From Thermoplasmata archaeon (GTDB taxonomy: Archaea; Thermoplasmatota; Thermoplasmata; RBG-16-68-12; JAFNFQ01), in contig JBGPQV010000007.1 of assembly GCA_041489255.1 (NCBI GenBank), positions 4,006 through 68,005 of the forward strand: a DNA stretch of 64,000 nucleotides, read 5' to 3'. Below the pieces are notes generated by a model. It made no database searches and was not told the origin of the DNA. It saw only the letters and a list, made by a program, of their open reading frames with translations. This document shows positions 14,514-56,362 of this stretch, piece after piece. A program made the position numbers and the translations under genes. The stretch's first letter is position 1. Each line of letters opens with the position of its first letter.

Positions 14514-14586
14514 AGCCCCGTGGTGTAGTGGCCTAGCATACGGGCCTTTGGAGCCTGTGACGGCAGTTCAAATCTGCCCGGGGCTG
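14514..14586 (+). tRNA. tRNA-Gln (anticodon UUG)
   Basis: hand-folded cloverleaf: acceptor AGCCCCG/CGGGGCU, anticodon stem CGGGC/GCCUG with loop CU-UUG-GA, T-arm GGCAG-UUCAAAU-CUGCC, discriminator G. Confidence 0.8.
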
Positions 14587-30360: not shown

Positions 30361-31213
30361 CTATGACGGGTAGAAGACCGCGACCATGGTCCCGCGTACA
30401 TAGCGGTCCACCGCGTCTTGACCCGCCGCCATGTAACCGGCCATGTAGTAGGTGTACGTGCCCGCCGTGACGGTCTCGATCCATTGGCTCGACTGTGTCG
30501 AACCATAGACTGCCGTGGACGCCCCGGACTCGATGTAATAGACTCCCAGTTGATCGTCTATGGCGTCGCAGGTCGCCACGTCCGTCGTGATCTTGAACCA
30601 GTAGGCGTCTGTCTGGCCGCTCGTGTGACTGAGCAGATCGTACTGCCATGCGCTTATCACTATCTGGCCGTCTGCCGGGACGGTGATGGTCAGCTGCATG
30701 AAGGCTTGGCACGAGGCCGTGATGGTCGTGACCGTGCCGAAGACTGTGGAAACCATGAGTGTGCCCGGGCCCGGCGGACCCTGCAGGCCCTGCGGACCTT
30801 GCGCGCCCGCGCAGTCGAGCACGTCCACGACGAGATCGCCGTTTATGTCTTCGGTCGCCAGGTCCCCCACGCGATTGCCATTCAGGTCCCAGCAAGCAAG
30901 GCCAGTCAGGCCCGTGTTCCCGGGCAATCCCTGATTTCCCTGCAATCCCTGGTCTCCCTGAACTCCCTGGATTCCTTGGTCTCCCTTCGGCCCCGCGGGC
31001 CCCGGGAACATTACCATGCCGACCAGCGCAAGCGCCAGACCGGCGGCACCAAGTGCCAGAGCCACGCCAGCCAGCGCGTTCCCCTTGCGAGGAGGGGAGA
31101 TCGGCTCCGGCGCGGGACTCGGCGGCGGTGGCATCATCTGCGGCTGAGGCGGCGGCATTCCTGCACCTGTCGTCTGTCCTGAACTCCAACCTGACATGAT
31201 TGATTTCTCCTTT
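30361..31213 (-). CDS. collagen-like (GXX triple-helix repeat) membrane-anchored protein
   Basis: Pro-rich N-terminus, TM (ALAGVALALGAAGLALALVGMVMF), runs GPAGPKGDQGIQGVQGDQGLQGNQGLPGNTGLTGL and GAQGPQGLQGPPGPG, C-terminal beta-rich domain; ORF-track 5' extension is out-of-frame overlap. Confidence 0.6.
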
Positions 31214-36648: not shown

Positions 36649-37122
36649 CTATGACCGGTAGACCGGAACCAAGTCCGTCTTGGCGGGGTATCCGCTGGCG
36701 GTGACTTCCACATTGAGTTCAGAGGTGGAAACTCCAGGCGGCAGGATGACCACCACGCTGTTGAACTTCACGCAACCGTCCTCGTTGCCATCCGCATCGG
36801 TACCCTTGCCGTCCGTGGCGGTCCTGTCGACGCCGACGCCTGAGAGGTGCACGGTGATCCCCTTGATCCTCGTGTCGCCCTGATCGAACGCGCAGACTGT
36901 GACGTCAACTGTCTTCTTCGCCTGAACGTTGATGCCGGGGTTCGACGTGGTTATCGGGTTCGGCTCGATCGATATCGTCTTGATGTTCTTCACCGGCGTC
37001 CCGCTCAGGCCAGAGAACCATCCGACCACCACGACTAGGGCGAGACCAGCCACAACTGCCATAATCAGGAGCTGGAGGGGCAGGCCCTCCAGGCCATCCC
37101 TGTCATCTCGAATATGCTTCAT
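36649..37122 (-). CDS. secreted/anchored protein with N-terminal TM or class-III-like signal; beta-rich (Ig-like?)
   Basis: MKHIRDDRDGLEGLPLQLLIMAVVAGLALVVVVGW then Thr/Val-rich beta domain; ATG at 37122. Confidence 0.45.
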   Translation of the reverse strand: MKHIRDDRDGLEGLPLQLLIMAVVAGLALVVVVGWFSGLSGTPVKNIKTISIEPNPITTSNPGINVQAKKTVDVTVCAFDQGDTRIKGITVHLSGVGVDRTATDGKGTDADGNEDGCVKFNSVVVILPPGVSTSELNVEVTASGYPAKTDLVPVYRS

Positions 37123-37558
37123 CTTGAATCCCAGATATGAATGCGTCTGTTTATGAAATGAATCTCTCCCGCGGGCGTATCTTGGCAATCTCGTACCTCC
37201 TTAATCATCGAGTAAGATTCGCGGCCTCGGTTCTGACTCACAGATAGCGTGGAATATAGCTCAGAAGTCTGCTCTGGGGCGCGCATTGTTTTCTTGCCCT
37301 CACTATTTCTCGAAATCGGTCCTTGATACGGCGACTCGATTCGATTCGGAGCGTCTCGTTGGACTGTCCGCGCGATTCTTGCCCCAAACGTCGCGTCATT
37401 CCGCCGAACGCACGCGATGCTTCTTCCAGTGAAGATTCAGAGTCCATCGAGAATCGCGCGACTGGGACTGACTTGGTCGCCGTCCGGCAAAGCTCGCAGC
37501 CGCATCTCCTCCGCCGGAGGCGACCTTGTTGCCATCCGCATCAATGCCACTCCATACG

Positions 37559-38000
37559 GAACGCCTTTCATCCCAATCGGAATGGATTCCATCCCAATCT
37601 GAATCCTCTTGGGACAACTGTCCCAGACATGGGGGACAATTGCCCCCAGGTTCGTCCCGGTTGCCCCAGGCTCCATCCCGATTGCCCCGAGACCGCTCCC
37701 TGTTGTTCCGACTTCCATCCTAAAGATAGTATATGCAAGAATGTTCATCCGAATGAATGTCCCCATTGTCCCGAGTCCCGGGACAATCGTTCTCAAACCT
37801 ATCCCAGTTGTCCCCGGACCGATTTCAGTTGCCCCGGAGTCCGTCCCGGTTGTCCCCGGCTCTGGAGTAATTGCCCCCGAGTCCATCCCAATTGTCCGAG
37901 GCATCGGGGGACTGTTTTCGGGTCATCAGCTGTTGTCCGCGATTCAATTCCAATTGCCCCGAGACCTTTCCCGATTGTCCCCGCAGCCGTCCCAATCGTC
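37559..38000. repeat. tandem array of ~21 degenerate 21-bp units (consensus ~ catcccgaTTGyCCCgagac), strict phase
   Basis: TTG(T/C)CCC cores at 37609,37630,37651,37672,37693,37756,37798,37819,37840,37861,37882,37924,37944,37965 (steps of 21); one unit inverted (gggacaatcg 37771); one AT-rich unit (taaagatagtatatgc). Confidence 0.8.
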
Positions 38001-38125
38001 CCAGATGGAGGGCAAATGAAGCGGATTCCACGCGATTTCCGCGCTTCCAAGTCGCTCAGATTCCTTGCAGGGCACGTTTCGCGGCAATAGGAAATCCTTA
38101 TGACGGGAATCGAGTTCGTCATCGC

Positions 38126-39058
38126 GTGGAACCCCTCGTCATCGAGAGCCTCTCGAAGGACTACGACGGCTTCAGGGCGCTGGACAGCCTCAATCTGAAG
38201 GTCGAGGCGAAGTCCTGCACTGGTTTCCTGGGGCCGAACGGCGCCGGCAAGACCACCACGATCAAGATCCTCACGAGCATGCTCAGGGCGACCGGCGGCC
38301 GCGCCTTCCTCAACGGTGTCGACGTGACGACCGATCCCAAGGAGGCCCTCGCCAGGGTCGGCGCAGTCGTGGAGACGCCGGAGTTCTACCCCGAGCTGAC
38401 GCCGATCGAGACTCTCGACTACTTCGCCAGGCTCAGGGGCATCCCCTCCGACCGCGCGAAGTCGCGGGTGATGCAGGTCATCGACCAGGTGAAAATGGGA
38501 GAGTGGAAGGACCAGAGGATAGGCAAGTTCTCCAAGGGCATGAAGCAGAGGATTGCGATCGCCCAGGCCCTGCTCCATGAGCCCGACCTCCTTGTCCTCG
38601 ACGAGCCGACCGCAGGCCTAGACCCGAGGGGCATGGCCGAGGTAAGGGACATCATCAAGGCATTGCGCCTGCAGGGCTACACCGTCTTCATGAGCAGCCA
38701 CCTGCTATTCGAGGTGCAGCAGCTCTGCGACAAGGTCGCCGTCGTCGACAAGGGCAAGCTCCTCATCTACGACACCGTGCAGAACCTCAGCACGAAGAGG
38801 CACGTCCTGAAGCTGGAGGTCGACCTCGTCGGCAAGATCGACACGGAGACCTACACCAAGGTCTGCGCGCTCGACAAGGTCAAAGGCGCGCAGTGCCCGA
38901 CGGCCACCAAGATGCTCATAGACTTCGACGGAGACACTGCCGACAGGAGGACGCTGCTCGAATCCCTGCAGAAACTTGGGCTCCAGGTGTACTCATTCGC
39001 CGACGCGGGCGTGGCGCTGGAAGAATTCTACCTGGACCTGATCAAGGAGTCGAGATAG
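38126..39058 (+). CDS. ABC transporter ATP-binding protein (ABC-2 type)
   Basis: Walker A GPNGAGKTTT, signature MSSHLL region, Walker B LLVLDEPT; GTG start at 38126 chosen because upstream in-frame ATG lies inside the repeat array. Confidence 0.8.
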   Translation: MEPLVIESLSKDYDGFRALDSLNLKVEAKSCTGFLGPNGAGKTTTIKILTSMLRATGGRAFLNGVDVTTDPKEALARVGAVVETPEFYPELTPIETLDYFARLRGIPSDRAKSRVMQVIDQVKMGEWKDQRIGKFSKGMKQRIAIAQALLHEPDLLVLDEPTAGLDPRGMAEVRDIIKALRLQGYTVFMSSHLLFEVQQLCDKVAVVDKGKLLIYDTVQNLSTKRHVLKLEVDLVGKIDTETYTKVCALDKVKGAQCPTATKMLIDFDGDTADRRTLLESLQKLGLQVYSFADAGVALEEFYLDLIKESR

Positions 39059-39059
39059 C

Positions 39060-39935
39060 ATGGCGGTAACGAACGCGGAAGCAGGGAAGTATGTCCTCCC
39101 CTCCGACTTCGACCAGATAATCACGGTGACCCGCGTCGAGTTCCTGAGGAACCTGCGGAGGAAGCGCCTCCTGATATTCGCGATAATCATCGCCCTGGTG
39201 TCCGCCCTGATACTCGCGGTCCCTCCATTCTTCGGAGGGTACCCGAGCGATCCGATACTGGGCCCTTACAGTTTCGCGCAGAACTTCACGTCCACGATCG
39301 ACTTCTTGATCATCCTGCTCGCGGTCTTCTACGGCGGCGACGCGCTCGTCTCAGAGTTCTCCAACAAGACGGGCTACGCGATATTCCCCAATCCTATCCG
39401 CCGCTCGTCGCTGTTCATGGGCAAGCTGCTCTCGAGCCTGCTTGCGTGCGTCCTGGTTCTCGGCGCGTACTACGTCATAATCGCGGCATCGATGATCGCC
39501 GTGTATGGCACGCTCGTGATCGAGCTCCTTTATTCATTCCTTTACGCAGTGCTCTACATGTCCGCTTGCCTCGGCGTCGCCTTCGCCATCAGCGCCCTCA
39601 TGAAGTCGACGGTGTCCGCGCTCGTCCTGACCTTCGTGCTCTTCCTCTTCGTCCTGAGCATGCTGTCGGTCGTACTCATGATCGCGAAGGTGAGGGCAGA
39701 GCCCCTGCTGACATTCCAAGCTGGGGTAATCAGCGGCTTTCTGAACGGCCCCTACCCCGGTTTCTTCCCGCCAACGGAACAGAGGTTCAACCCCGGAGGC
39801 GGCAACGCGACCGGGTTCGACTTCGTGCTCTACAACCCGACCGTCACGAACGGGATGATCGTCTGCACCGTCTGGCTGGTCGTGTCGCTATTGCTTGCAT
39901 ACGCGGTGTTCCGCCGGCGAGAGATGCTCGGTTAA
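39060..39935 (+). CDS. ABC-2 family transporter permease
   Basis: 6 predicted TM helices; immediately follows ATPase. Confidence 0.65.
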   Translation: MAVTNAEAGKYVLPSDFDQIITVTRVEFLRNLRRKRLLIFAIIIALVSALILAVPPFFGGYPSDPILGPYSFAQNFTSTIDFLIILLAVFYGGDALVSEFSNKTGYAIFPNPIRRSSLFMGKLLSSLLACVLVLGAYYVIIAASMIAVYGTLVIELLYSFLYAVLYMSACLGVAFAISALMKSTVSALVLTFVLFLFVLSMLSVVLMIAKVRAEPLLTFQAGVISGFLNGPYPGFFPPTEQRFNPGGGNATGFDFVLYNPTVTNGMIVCTVWLVVSLLLAYAVFRRREMLG

Positions 39936-53477: not shown

Positions 53478-54239
53478 TCAGACAGAGAGAAGCAGTCCAG
53501 TGAAGTACATCAGCAGGATGCCAAGGGCGATTCCCGCAAACATGCTCCTCGGGGAGGTCGACAGTCTCAGGAGTTCGACCGCGACGAACAGCAAGGCACC
53601 TCCCGCCACAGAGAAGAAGAGGACGCCCAGGAGTTCTGAGTATGCCAGGGAGCCTATCACGCTCCCTATGATCGTCGGGAACCCCGCGATGAAACCCATG
53701 GCCAGAGGCTGTCTCAGCCGCATCGGCGTGTCGGACACCGGCCCAGCAATCCCGAGCCCCTCGGTCCCGTTGTGGAGCGCGAACCCGACAACGAGGGCGG
53801 TTGTCAGTGCGAACTGACCCGCCCCATAAGCGGCACCGAGGGCGAGCCCTTCGCCGAAGTTGTGCAGTCCGATTCCTAAGGCCATCATGTAGGCGGTGAG
53901 CAGCTTGGAGTCGCTTCCCGCCAAAGCGGAAGACCCGGGCGAGGTCGGTGCAACGATGCTCCCTCGCCGATGATGGAATAACAATGCGGGACCTACGAGC
54001 CCCAAGGTCAGACCGATGACGAAAAGGAGCGGACCGACTGGGGACACCTTGGCCATTTCCACGGATTCGCCCGTGACGTCAGCGAAGAGGAACATGAGTA
54101 TTCCGGTGGAAAAGCTGAGGAGCAGGCTTCTCCAATGTGGAGGGAGCCTCCTAAAGAGTGGTATTGGCATGAGCCCCAGGTAGACTGGTACCAAACCGGC
54201 GAGGATCCCGATCAGGATGGGGTTTGCGATGTCCGCCAT
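53478..54239 (-). CDS. ZIP-family metal transporter (second paralogue)
   Basis: HNFGEGLALG, HNGTEGLG motifs. Confidence 0.8.
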   Translation of the reverse strand: MADIANPILIGILAGLVPVYLGLMPIPLFRRLPPHWRSLLLSFSTGILMFLFADVTGESVEMAKVSPVGPLLFVIGLTLGLVGPALLFHHRRGSIVAPTSPGSSALAGSDSKLLTAYMMALGIGLHNFGEGLALGAAYGAGQFALTTALVVGFALHNGTEGLGIAGPVSDTPMRLRQPLAMGFIAGFPTIIGSVIGSLAYSELLGVLFFSVAGGALLFVAVELLRLSTSPRSMFAGIALGILLMYFTGLLLSV

Positions 54240-54308
54240 TGAGACAGTTGCTTACTGCATCTGCCTACTTCAAGTCTTGCGGTTTAGAGCTACCTAATTC
54301 TCTGCGCC

Positions 54309-54440
54309 TCAGGATTCTCGAATCCCGTCCACAGCCCGCTCCGCTTCCTTCTTCGGCTCCCTAGCCTCGGATAGCGCCCGACAATCGCGCAGTCCGCCCC
54401 TGCCATGATCGCATCCGAAGCGCATCAGTCGGGCGGCGAC
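54309..54440 (-). pseudogene. degenerate duplicate of pyrF 3' end (…CRALSEAREPKKEAERAVDGIRES*)
   Basis: ~85% nt identity with 1-nt indel to 55752..55860 (pyrF C-terminus …GRAIYEAKEPRKEAEQVIEGIR…). Confidence 0.65.
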
Positions 54441-55180
54441 ATACACTCTCTCCATGATGTGGGATCCTCGGACAACTGTGGGACATCCGGGGACAATCGC
54501 ATGAGATCCACGAGCAGTTCGATGCAACTTTCAGAAATCCGTCATGAACCCTCCAACGCTCCGCGCGCAACCCCAAACAATCGGAAGGACTCCCCCAACG
54601 AACCGCGCGGGATTCAAGACAATCGATAGATATCTCCGGATGGCCAAAACCCACTTCCAGACGATTGTCCGGGACTTCCAGACAACCCTCTGGGACCTCC
54701 AGAAGGATCTCTCGCGGTCCCAGACGACCATTTTGGACCATCAGAGGTCCGAATGGGGGTCCGGACGACCCGAACCACCCGCCAGACGACTCTCTGATAC
54801 CTCCAGAGGATCGTTCGGGACCTCCAGAAGACCGTCTGGCGGTCGCGGAGGGCTGAAGGAGGGGGGTTAGAGCCTTCTGACACTTCCAGACGACTGTCTG
54901 GGACTAGCTTCGGACCGTCTGACGGTTCCTCCGGACTTTCTGGCGTTGTCAGAAGACCGTCTGGCGGTTCCAGACGACTGTCTGGGACTCGCCTTGAATC
55001 CGCTGGATAAGGGATTGGATCGGCTGAAGATGCGTTCGCGTGCTCTCGCGGTCCGTCAGGACCCGCTTGATATTGGATTGAGTCGGCTGGAGGTGTGTCG
55101 GAGTGTTCTCAAGGTCCGCGAGGGTCGTCCGGGATTGGACGCGGATCGTCGAGAGGTGGGATCCAATCGGCTGATGGACG
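54440..55180. repeat. tandem array of ~35 degenerate 21-bp units (cores ggacaatcg / ccagacgactgtctggga), strict phase; related to array 37559..38000
   Basis: caatcg at 54494, 54578, 54620 (multiples of 21); units at 54654, 54675, 54717, 54780, 54801, 54822, 54885, 54948, 54969 … all in phase. Confidence 0.8.
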
Positions 55181-55261
55181 CTCTTCCGTGTCTGTTGCAA
55201 TCCTGCACACAGACCGGTCTTGTTCGCGGCGGGAAAGAATCAACAGAGGCTTTCCTCGAAT

Positions 55262-55302
55262 GAAGAGGAAAAGAAAAAAATGCCCCCCTTTTGGCGGGGG
55301 GC
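55262..55302 (-). terminator. GC hairpin + T-tract (minus-strand), candidate pyrF terminator
   Basis: gcccccc-ttttggc-ggggggc stem-loop; minus strand continues attttttttcttttcc. Confidence 0.35.
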
Positions 55303-55714
55303 TTGGGAAACGCGGGTTCGCAACCGCCAATGGACGCTACTTCATCGCTTCCTGGACCGGGACCGGCAGCGGCTCCGCAGCCGTCTGATCCCCCGCCTGC
55401 CTGACCTTGCTCCGGAGGCGCTGGAAGACCTTCGCCGACTCGCTGTTCTTCTCCACCGCCGCCATCATCATGTCGATCGTGCCCGATGTGACGACGTACG
55501 CGCGGTGCATTGTCGTGGGATTCTGTACCTCGCCGCTGTCAAAAGCCGACTACGAGTCAGCCAACGGGTGGATGAGGAATCTTGCGAATGTCGCAGGCAT
55601 TCGTTTCCGAGATGTTGTCTATTTCGAGGGCCAACCATCGGTATTCGACAATGACTCTAGAAACGCTGGGCCACCAGCAAGACGGAATCGTGTGCATAAC
55701 GGAAAGTGGATATC

Positions 55715-56362
55715 CTAAGATCGGAAAGTTACGCGAATGCCTTCAATGACCTGTTCCGCTTCCTTCCTCGGCTCCTTCGCCTCGTATATCGCCCGCCCCA
55801 CGATCACGTAATCCGCCCCTGCTCTGATTGCGTCGGCAGCGCTCCCGCCCTGCGCACCGACTCCAGGCGTCGCGATGCGGAGACTCCCGACAATCTCCCT
55901 CATCCTCCTAATCCTTTCCGGCCTCGTGGCGGGAGCGATGATGCCAGTTGCCCCGACCTTCACCGCCATCCTCGCGATCTCCTCCGCTATCGGCGCGCTG
56001 AACCTCTCAGCCCCGGGGTGGCTCATCTCCGTCACAACGAACACGTCGCCCTTGGCGGCATCCACGCACGCTTTCACCGAGTCCTCGCCTGGGAAGCCGT
56101 GGACGATCACGCCCGATGCCCCGCGGCGGAAAGCCTCCTGCACGATGAGGCGGTTGGTGTTCGGGATGTCGGCGACCTTGAAGTCGCAGAGCACGTCCGA
56201 CTCCTTCGCGAGCTTTGTGATGATTTCGGGTCCGACCCCTAGGATGATCGGCCAGTTGACCTTGATGGCGTCAACGAGGTTTTTCACTTCGCCCGCGATT
56301 TTGAGCGCCCTCTTTTCCTCCACGACATCGAGCGCCAGAATCAGATGAGAGTCGAGCTTCAT
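55715..56362 (-). CDS. pyrF: orotidine 5'-phosphate decarboxylase
   Basis: LALDV…, DFKVADIPNT, catalytic K/D pattern, GVGAQGG phosphate-binding end. Confidence 0.85.
   Translation of the reverse strand: MKLDSHLILALDVVEEKRALKIAGEVKNLVDAIKVNWPIILGVGPEIITKLAKESDVLCDFKVADIPNTNRLIVQEAFRRGASGVIVHGFPGEDSVKACVDAAKGDVFVVTEMSHPGAERFSAPIAEEIARMAVKVGATGIIAPATRPERIRRMREIVGSLRIATPGVGAQGGSAADAIRAGADYVIVGRAIYEAKEPRKEAEQVIEGIRVTFRS

Follow-up and report, generated by a model that had tools for sequence, protein, structure and literature searches.

A dispersed family of apparently non-coding, 21-bp-phased repeat arrays in uncultured archaea

The tandem array considered here, referred to as array 1, is built from 21-bp units and is located between a small minus-strand gene and an ATP-binding cassette (ABC) transporter operon. 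It lies in a stretch of 64,000 nucleotides from a Thermoplasmata archaeon (assembly GCA_041489255.1, contig JBGPQV010000007.1, positions 4,006 to 68,005 of the forward strand), which is called the window below. Sequence comparisons indicate that array 1 belongs to a dispersed family of non-coding elements, the members of which occur in a group of uncultured archaea. Taken jointly, the anatomical statements, i.e., that the family is non-coding, dispersed, conserved and borne by insertions, are very probably correct.

Anatomy of the locus

The window was compared with the sister strains L002, L123, L126 and L247/L129 (permease 90-93% nucleotide identity; L129 and L002 represent one lineage), with the more distant relatives L127 and L249, and with other genomes that carry copies of the array, i.e., L243/L244 (GCA_017885655.1 and a Joint Genome Institute (JGI) sample), L245 and L246. 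The limits of array 1 were defined by three-way alignments with L243 and L246, together with an nhmmer family model. The features of the locus are as follows, where MAG denotes a metagenome-assembled genome and ORF an open reading frame.

37123..37547, no strand assigned: left intergenic part, non-repetitive and outside the dispersed element
37548..38005, plus strand: array 1, the whole element, made up of a conserved head and, after it, about 22 degenerate 21-bp units
37548..37600, plus strand: conserved non-repeat head, CCACTCCATACGGAAC..TCCCAATCGGAAT, with 37 nt at 89% identity with L246 and also present in L243
37574..37661, no strand assigned: dyad-symmetric stretch with the inverted cores GGGACAACTGTCCC and GGGGGACAATTGCCCCC (TTGYCCC inverted at 37611 and 37633)
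37706..37756, plus strand: irregular AT-rich units (AT-rich part 37706..37747), with AGTATAT at 37729..37735 and then TCCGAATGA at 37748..37756
37323..38090, plus strand: ORF255, the Cys/Pro frame, called as a gene of 255 amino acids in the source MAG; not a gene
37609..38019, plus strand: open frame +1 with Pro/Val heptads; not a gene
37437..37904, minus strand: open frame with Gly/Thr heptads; not a gene, frameshifted in L126
38096..38101, plus strand: CCTTAT box, downstream of array 1 and about 25-30 nt ahead of the GTG start of the ATPase (38126)
38126..39935, plus strand: ABC-2 type transporter operon, ATPase 38126..39058 and permease 39060..39935 (Pfam ABC_tran and ABC2_membrane)

The 21-bp period, from which the original prediction started, is evident from the autocorrelation of the sequence. 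At lag 21 it reaches 0.468 in 37559..38000, compared with a background of 0.26, and harmonics are seen at 42, 63, 84, 105 and 126. For the whole element (37548..38005) the observed value is 0.474, which was reached by none of 2000 shuffles, the best shuffled lag (5-69) being at most 0.349. In a sliding scan of the 64 kb, the 21/42/63 period is found in two places only, 37451..38010 and 54451..55210, the latter coinciding with a second array that is described below (array 2). Tandem Repeats Finder (TRF) detects only the best-kept stretches of the arrays. A tandem periodicity of 9/18/27 bp at 30766..30986, located within a gene for a product with a weak match to Pfam Collagen, is an ordinary coding repeat and unrelated to the 21-bp arrays.

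Written in rows of 21 bases, array 1 displays the recurring pattern ...TCCC-RR-TTG-YCCCC-GRG.... The core that had been proposed, TTG(T/C)CCC, is found 14 times as TTGYCCC in 37611..37981, while the expectation for the entire 64 kb is about 14.5, and in the window only array 1 harbors three such cores in series at an exact 21-bp spacing. The distances from anchor to anchor are 21, 42 or 63 bp, except for a single distance of 41, i.e., one -1 slip between 37890 and 37931, which agrees with the earlier description of an array with essentially no indels. The phase is kept at a unit-to-unit identity of only about 47%. The given strand is C-rich (GC skew -0.16) and is co-oriented with the downstream ABC operon.

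Two structural details had also been anticipated in part. Inversion of the core was recognized correctly, but in three cases rather than in one (37611, 37633 and 37780). A hidden Markov model (HMM) of the family matches the dyad-symmetric stretch on both strands in the window-clade copies and in L246, and weakly in L243/L244. The AT-rich unit noted earlier is present, in the form of the irregular stretch at 37706..37747; the likeness of AGTATAT to a TATA box is only a resemblance. Both AGTATAT and TCCGAATGA are kept in the collinear copy of L243 and are absent from L246.

The array does not fill the intergenic space, as had been assumed. This space (37123..38125) spans 1003 bp between the small minus-strand gene at 36649..37122 and the GTG start of the ABC-2 ATPase at 38126; array 1 takes the right ~460 bp, and the left ~430 bp are non-repetitive. 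In the alignments with L243 and L246, no homology was found further left than the head. The left part (37123..37547) has no homology in L243, L246 or L127 and is well conserved among the strains, with 3.7% variable columns compared with 7.4% in array 1, and with pairwise strain differences of 0.2-3.2% compared with 4-10% at third codon positions of the ATPase. Within it, at 37325..37376, five substitutions are split 4:1 in favor of a single codon-position class, a number that does not suffice for calling a small gene.

Coding potential and the insertion site

The original prediction included a second option, i.e., that the array is a coding heptad repeat, and it pointed to two open frames on the plus strand. 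Both are indeed open, as is one on the minus strand. A heptad-repeat protein, encoded either by the Cys/Pro frame of ORF255 or by the Pro/Val-rich frame, would account for these long frames, for the gene call in the source MAG, for a unit length that is divisible by three and for a conserved ATG that follows the AT-rich unit. The substitutions are, however, distributed differently from those of genes. Between the window and L002, the changes in codon positions 1/2/3 are 6/6/5 in ORF255, compared with 2/1/21 in the ATPase, 13/5/49 in the permease and 7/6/54 in the small upstream gene; in these flanking genes about 80% of the changes are in third positions. Across four strains, the 33 substitutions in array 1 fall 14/12/7 when counted modulo 3 (12/7/14 in the frame 37609..38019), and between the window and L247 the counts by codon position are 8/5/6 for the array and 6/5/41 for the ATPase. 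In a true protein at the distance of L243 (62.6% identity), third positions are expected to be saturated; the observed mismatches between the window and L243 are 33/35/37 per codon-position class, each of about 89-90 sites. A codon-position bias is thus absent from array 1 at every divergence level, in every frame and on both strands.

In addition, ORF255 is broken in sister strains, by a premature stop in L123 (37431 G>T) and by a 1-bp deletion in L126 (37631). The array yields similar tblastx scores in several frames and on both strands, and in P0126, another array translated as a protein, the reading frame switches mid-array. Among 5.8 billion proteins, the sole match to ORF255 was the copy from a sister strain, and no Pfam match was obtained; with full HMMER and profile searches the database matches beyond sister strains are other arrays only. 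The flat codon positions together with the broken ORF255 led us to reject the coding reading. Array 1 is, on this evidence, to be regarded as non-coding, and a heptad-repeat protein as extremely improbable.

The array had further been placed in the promoter region of the ABC transporter. This framing is not supported when relatives are considered. A CCTTAT box at the same distance to the start is found in L127 and L249, both of which lack the array, and as the box is shared, the core promoter of the operon is probably located downstream of array 1; the box itself is probably this core promoter, with a putative promoter function. In L127 (amino-acid identity 88% for the ATPase and 78% for the permease) the same two flanking genes are separated by ~270 bp without an array, and homology with the window stops at the two start codons. 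L249, with an ATPase at 93.5% amino-acid identity, has another insert upstream and no array. Because these close relatives have other upstream sequence yet keep the CCTTAT box, array 1 appears to be neither an ancestral nor a fixed part of the transporter promoter. The spot upstream of the box is variable, array 1 being one of several alternative inserts. Terminal inverted repeats and target-site duplications, as carried by MITE-like transposable elements, were not seen at array 1; the alignments of the ends show no inverted termini, and the empty sites of L127 and L249 are not alignable across the junction. A scan for sigma-70 promoters and terminators was discarded; it found nothing and is irrelevant for an archaeon.

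Several observations concern the surroundings of this spot. The alternative insert of L249 carries at 60..425 a minus-strand ORF of 103 amino acids with the palindrome TTGTAACGTTACA on either side. The ATPase is also found on a contig of the MAG GCA_041481165.1, where its neighbors, eIF2-gamma and ribosomal protein S6e, mark the organism as an archaeon. The small gene at 36649..37122 (minus strand) encodes 157 amino acids with a hydrophobic N-terminal segment and no Pfam match. Its third positions differ by 26-34% in five of six strain pairs (5% in the sixth), compared with 4-10% for the ATPase, a pattern that suggests either mosaic recombination or a fast-evolving surface protein. In L247, an 85-amino-acid integrase-core fragment (Pfam rve_3) at 4602..4859, between the gene of a large fn3 protein and a glyoxalase gene, is a sign of mobile-element activity in this neighborhood.

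Copies in other genomes and at a second locus

The other copies were located by a full HMMER search with ORF255, in which the matching "proteins" are translations of arrays, and a profile search gave one more. The family copies span ~0.45-0.6 kb; each has a short conserved head, CCACTCCATAYGGA..., after which come 16-24 degenerate 21-bp units that share the core CRATTGYCCCCG. All three long copies, i.e., those of the window, L243 and L246, open with the head CCACTCCATAYGGA...TCCCRATCKGAA, and their homology ends at ~38005.

The closest correspondence is found with L243/L244, where the array is collinear with 37510..38017 of the window at 62% identity. L243 shares with the window the AT-rich unit (AGTATAT ... 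TCCGAATGA) as well as special units such as CAATTGTCCGAGG. The alignment of the two requires one 21-bp indel and three 1-bp indels. Over 255 ungapped nt, the identity is 62.4% in register compared with 48-49% when shifted by one unit, and the units are individually orthologous. Mismatches between the window and L243 are less frequent in the core (41/154, 27%) than outside it (81/167, 49%; p = 5.7e-5). The copy in L246 is a very regular array of 24 units, CAATTGTCCCCG-N6-TTC, located between a Zn-ribbon gene and a gene for a CARDB surface protein, while that in L245 is young and nearly perfect, with 16 units of mixed 20 and 21 bp. In all four copies the anchor spacings are 21 bp or multiples thereof, with only -1 slips and a mean period of 20.7-20.9 bp. 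A G-quadruplex was rejected as a conserved feature: in L246 there is one G-run per 21 nt and the loops are too long.

When the whole window was compared by tblastx with the contigs of L243, L244 and L245, the array was the only match. The original prediction had suggested a search of related genomes for the same 21-mers upstream of transporter genes. The same element is found upstream of unrelated genes, and what links the copies is the dispersed element itself. The C-rich strand runs in the direction of the next downstream gene in 4/4 independent contexts. The array of L243 sits in a series of ORFs without a family match, where PHROGs and Pfam scans of the neighbors gave only sub-threshold hints. 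About 800 bp upstream of it, at L243 3794..3870, are seven tandem 11-bp direct repeats (TGAATTAACCG-like), flanked by a weak winged-helix ORF (PadR-like, sub-threshold) and a coiled-coil ORF; this region may be a replication or partition module of a mobile element.

Outside these copies the core pattern is less specific. Scanning genome contigs for three TTGYCCC at 21-bp spacing yielded at least 120 loci, and among the matches listed all are bacterial except one MAG of Methanosarcina, and none are relatives. Our guess is that these matches are coding repeats. In viral contigs the same pattern gave 108 unspecific matches.

The second array in the window had been described as related, at 54440..55180. 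Its period is clear, while its sequence relation is weak and limited to one end. This array is divided into three parts.

54452..55200, minus strand: array 2, ~36 units with a 21-bp period; the C-rich orientation is upstream of and co-oriented with the ZIP gene at 53478..54239
54452..54640, minus strand: part A, GGGACAA/CAATCG-type units, with an AT-rich unit GATAGATATC at 54625..54634
54657..54997, no strand assigned: part B, ~17 units of CCAGA-N6-TCTGG-N5
54998..55200, no strand assigned: part C, a higher-order 63-bp repeat equal to three 21-bp units (TRF 55000..55118, period 63)
54310..54432, minus strand: relic copy of the last ~40 codons of pyrF, frameshifted, adjoining the ZIP promoter; the real pyrF 3' end is at 55715..

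The lag-21 value of array 2 is 0.465, reached in 0 of 2000 shuffles, and the register is kept with two -1 slips. No frame is open across it; the longest overlapping ORF has 126 amino acids and the substitution counts modulo 3 are 55/42/40. Small ORFs beside it (55337..55510 and others) were considered and dismissed as genes, with codon counts of 17/15/13 and no bias. The likeness to array 1 is confined to the ZIP-proximal end, part A, and is weak (nhmmer 54462..54519, minus strand, E = 0.013), and a direct comparison of both intergenic regions gave short matches at the level of motifs only. A scan of the viral contigs for the pattern of array 2 gave no matches.

Array 2 is kept in L129, with one exact 21-bp unit indel in the alignment, and this comparison makes it possible to view substitutions in part B by segment. 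They are found in 3/83 sites (3.6%) of CCAGA, 9/80 (11%) of TCTGG, 37/98 (38%) of the 6-nt spacer and 13/80 (16%) of the 5-nt linker (chi-square p = 1e-8 for the four segments). The contrast between half-sites and spacer, 12/163 vs 37/98, yields p = 2e-9, and the third codon positions of ZIP differ by 14.6%. In L129 the spacer CAACTT is found in four non-adjacent units and has thus been homogenized by conversion between units. The low substitution in the half-sites suggests selection, yet would in part be a product of such conversion.

The insert that carries array 2, ~1.3 kb in size, is bracketed by a ~120-nt duplicated pyrF 3' end, as follows from the pyrF relic beside ZIP and the real pyrF 3' end on the other side, and not by a short duplication. 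L132, with a ZIP gene 86% identical, has pyrF, 59 bp and ZIP in a row, without the insert. The relic seems to have been left behind by DNA that integrated into the pyrF 3' end, or by a duplication of this end. Just before the ZIP start, ~60 nt (AATTAGGTAGCTCTAAACCGCAAGACTTGAAGTAGGC...; window 54240..54300, L132 4643..4701, L133 ~2340..2402) are highly conserved in relatives down to 75% protein identity, and could serve the zinc transporter as a promoter, operator or leader element. Homologues of ZIP at a greater distance (57-58% identity) are labeled Bathyarchaeia, which is no more than a hint at the affiliation of the group. A G+C-rich hairpin, GCCCCCC-TTTTGG-CGGGGGGC, is located at 55284..55302 after an A-rich run, inside a segment of ~229 bp that is absent from L129.

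Interpretation of the arrays

The reading that we prefer is that the element, inserted into a variable intergenic spot just upstream of the core promoter of the ABC operon, would work as double-stranded DNA. A DNA-binding protein would bind to the cores and, in array 2, to the CCAGA-N6-TCTGG palindromes. The 21-bp spacing corresponds to two turns of the helix and would place bound copies on one face, such that a cooperative nucleoprotein array may form. This array could resemble iterons or a centromere, or serve the co-oriented gene behind it as a regulatory scaffold. Phased binding sites at the level of DNA had been the other option in the original prediction, and the data fit it in that the arrays appear non-coding, their spacing is kept, their motifs are conserved and evidence for RNA structure was not obtained. 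The mechanism itself, including a constraint on spacing and a role of the cores in protein binding, is what we infer from these patterns, and we hold it tentatively, at somewhat less than an even chance.

The argument for a constraint on spacing is drawn from the way in which the element changes. Its changes are almost exclusively substitutions, indels of whole 21-bp units and rare -1 slips, and it remains collinear at 38% divergence. In the intergenic region of four strains there are 2 single-base indels and ~54 substitutions, and from this ratio several indels are predicted for the ~95 differences over the 255-nt stretch shared by the window and L243, where none are found.

A number of observations weigh against phased DNA binding. 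No DNA-binding gene is consistently adjacent to the copies, and the core is not depleted of substitutions in array 1 among close strains. Array 1 diverges at 0.3-1.0 times the rate of third codon positions of the ATPase, and array 2, with a divergence of 16-24%, changes at or above the rate of ZIP third positions (14.6%). Motif conservation can in part be produced by conversion between units, and for this reason does not testify cleanly to purifying selection. Not every copy has the AT-rich unit (L246 lacks it), the orientation rule is based on four cases, and relatives that lack arrays appear to manage the same genes without them.

An alternative is a selfish or neutral dispersed satellite: the arrays would be non-autonomous repeats or integrated extrachromosomal remnants, which spread through recombination or insertion to permissive intergenic spots and decay without a host function, the 21-bp phase persisting only through substitution, unit-sized slippage and unit conversion. 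Their presence or absence varies between close lineages, the copies reside in unrelated contexts, the insert of array 2 is flanked by the duplicated pyrF 3' end, and the L243 copy sits in a run of family-less ORFs beside other iteron-like repeats; a divergence near neutral between strains, the concerted evolution visible in L129, and the young, nearly perfect array of L245 with its mixed units point in the same direction. Decaying DNA, however, would not be expected to keep the head and the special units (AGTATAT, TCCGAATGA, CAATTGTCCGAGG), or to remain free of indels over 255 nt at 38% divergence with few 1-bp indels elsewhere, and at array 1 terminal inverted repeats and target-site duplications were not seen. 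We regard such a satellite without function as somewhat unlikely. Another explanation is that the array is transcribed, either from the AT-rich unit or as the leader of the downstream gene, the C-rich repeats serving as a protein sponge or a regulatory leader. The co-orientation of the C-rich strand with the downstream gene in all four contexts would be explained in this way, and AGTATAT and TCCGAATGA, as kept in the window and L243, lie at a distance that would suit a promoter and a start site. Single-sequence folding gives z-scores of -2.0 to -3.5, which are expected from the inverted units. There was, however, no Rfam match at curated thresholds: at the gathering threshold the scan of the window gave only a tRNA at 14514, and a permissive scan added one sub-threshold match, left of the array (AS1726, 23 bits vs a cut-off of 50 bits, E = 0.38). 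Covariation is absent on either strand, and about one-third of the predicted pairs are broken in L243; RNAalifold with the window clade and L243 gave covariation terms of -2.2 and +0.25 kcal/mol, and no hairpin covariation beyond that of the consensus was found. In array 2, hairpin pairing is no better within units than between shuffled partners. L246 has no AT-rich unit, and the operon has its own promoter-like box downstream of the array. A function as RNA is thus distinctly unlikely, although an unstructured transcript or leader would be compatible with these results.

A more specific version of DNA binding, which overlaps with the reading that we prefer, is that the arrays are the iteron replication origin or the partition centromere of an integrated plasmid or virus remnant. 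The 21-bp tandem direct repeats, the AT-rich unit in two of the three copies examined (window and L243, not L246) and the palindromic sites in array 2 are in line with this idea, as is the setting of the L243 copy among family-less ORFs, near the weak winged-helix protein and the seven 11-bp direct repeats. Against it, no rep, orc1/cdc6, parA or parB gene is located beside the copies whose neighbors were scanned. These neighbors comprise a pilin-like ORF, the ABC transporter, ZIP, pyrF, the Zn-ribbon and CARDB genes and the family-less ORFs, and there was no Rep/Orc1 match and no domain of the parA/parB or parM/parR type among them. The number of units, 20-36, is far above that of typical iteron sets, and the inserts in the window are only 0.9-1.3 kb and gene-free. 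We consider an origin or centromere very unlikely.

Plasmid iterons, e.g., the seven 22-bp repeats of the R6K gamma ori, come in sets of 3-9 units beside a rep gene and an AT-rich unwinding element, on a replicon. The arrays resemble them in having head-to-tail direct repeats of ~20 bp near two helical turns, a degenerate consensus and a proposed protein binding, but differ in having 16-36 units, in being chromosomal intergenic inserts and in the lack of rep among the scanned neighbors. As for an unwinding element, an AT-rich unit of 20-40 bp is found inside the copies of the window and L243 and is absent from L246. Partition centromeres are composed of many phased repeats, 10 x 11 bp in R1 parC and 12 x 43 bp, with an inverted repeat in each, in F sopC. 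The likeness to these lies in the phasing, in the inverted repeat of each array 2 unit, as in sopC, and in the working model of a cooperative nucleoprotein complex, while adjacent genes of the parA/parB/parR type are missing and the unit sequences are unrelated. Archaeal origins harbor a few origin recognition box (ORB) or mini-ORB elements, inverted around an unwinding element and beside orc1/cdc6; short elements repeated around an AT-rich stretch are common to both, but few inverted elements and a linkage to orc1/cdc6 are not seen at the arrays.

An array of clustered regularly interspaced short palindromic repeats (CRISPR) likewise combines a conserved, leader-like head with many short repeats that all point the same way. 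As concluded originally, array 1 is not CRISPR-like: its units are related, degenerate and abut one another, without unique spacers. No cas genes were seen in the neighborhood of the array, the whole window not having been scanned for them. The Borg extrachromosomal elements of Methanoperedens contain tandem repeats that are often intergenic and head-to-tail, with some units of 20-21 nt, and for which a regulatory role was suggested; these repeats have perfect, A-rich units, arose recently, evolve fast and are very rarely common to different genomes (PMC9879509). The arrays share with them the archaeal origin and the intergenic, head-to-tail arrangement. In contrast to Borg repeats, they are degenerate (with the unit identity of ~47% given above), C-rich, and collinear between genomes at 62% identity.

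The literature searches returned no description of such arrays. The element is best placed among the intergenic tandem-repeat or iteron-like DNA arrays, a broad class within which its in-register conservation across genomes and its dispersal as a unit are unusual. A bolder proposal is that the arrays represent an undescribed class in uncultured, possibly Bathyarchaeia-like archaea: conserved, insertion-borne, with a leader-like head and ~20 putative protein-binding units at two helical turns. From these a one-sided nucleoprotein filament would form, and the arrays would serve as portable cassettes, for regulation, insulation or segregation, in front of genes for membrane and surface proteins. 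We consider this proposal rather unlikely.

Independent of the mechanism, the arrays have a practical consequence for annotation. Gene callers turn them into "hypothetical proteins", as seen for ORF255, P0122, P0124 and P0126, and recognition of the family would allow these spurious proteins to be removed from the annotations of archaeal MAGs. The presence and absence of the inserts, together with the duplicated pyrF 3' end, mark intergenic insertion hot-spots that are useful for tracing mobile DNA. That a non-coding, degenerate repeat is kept in register and collinear at 62% identity is unusual and suggests that DNA geometry is under selection. Should a binding protein exist, the arrays would offer a tractable case of a large, phased nucleoprotein complex in a lineage without a genetic system, whose regulation is little known.

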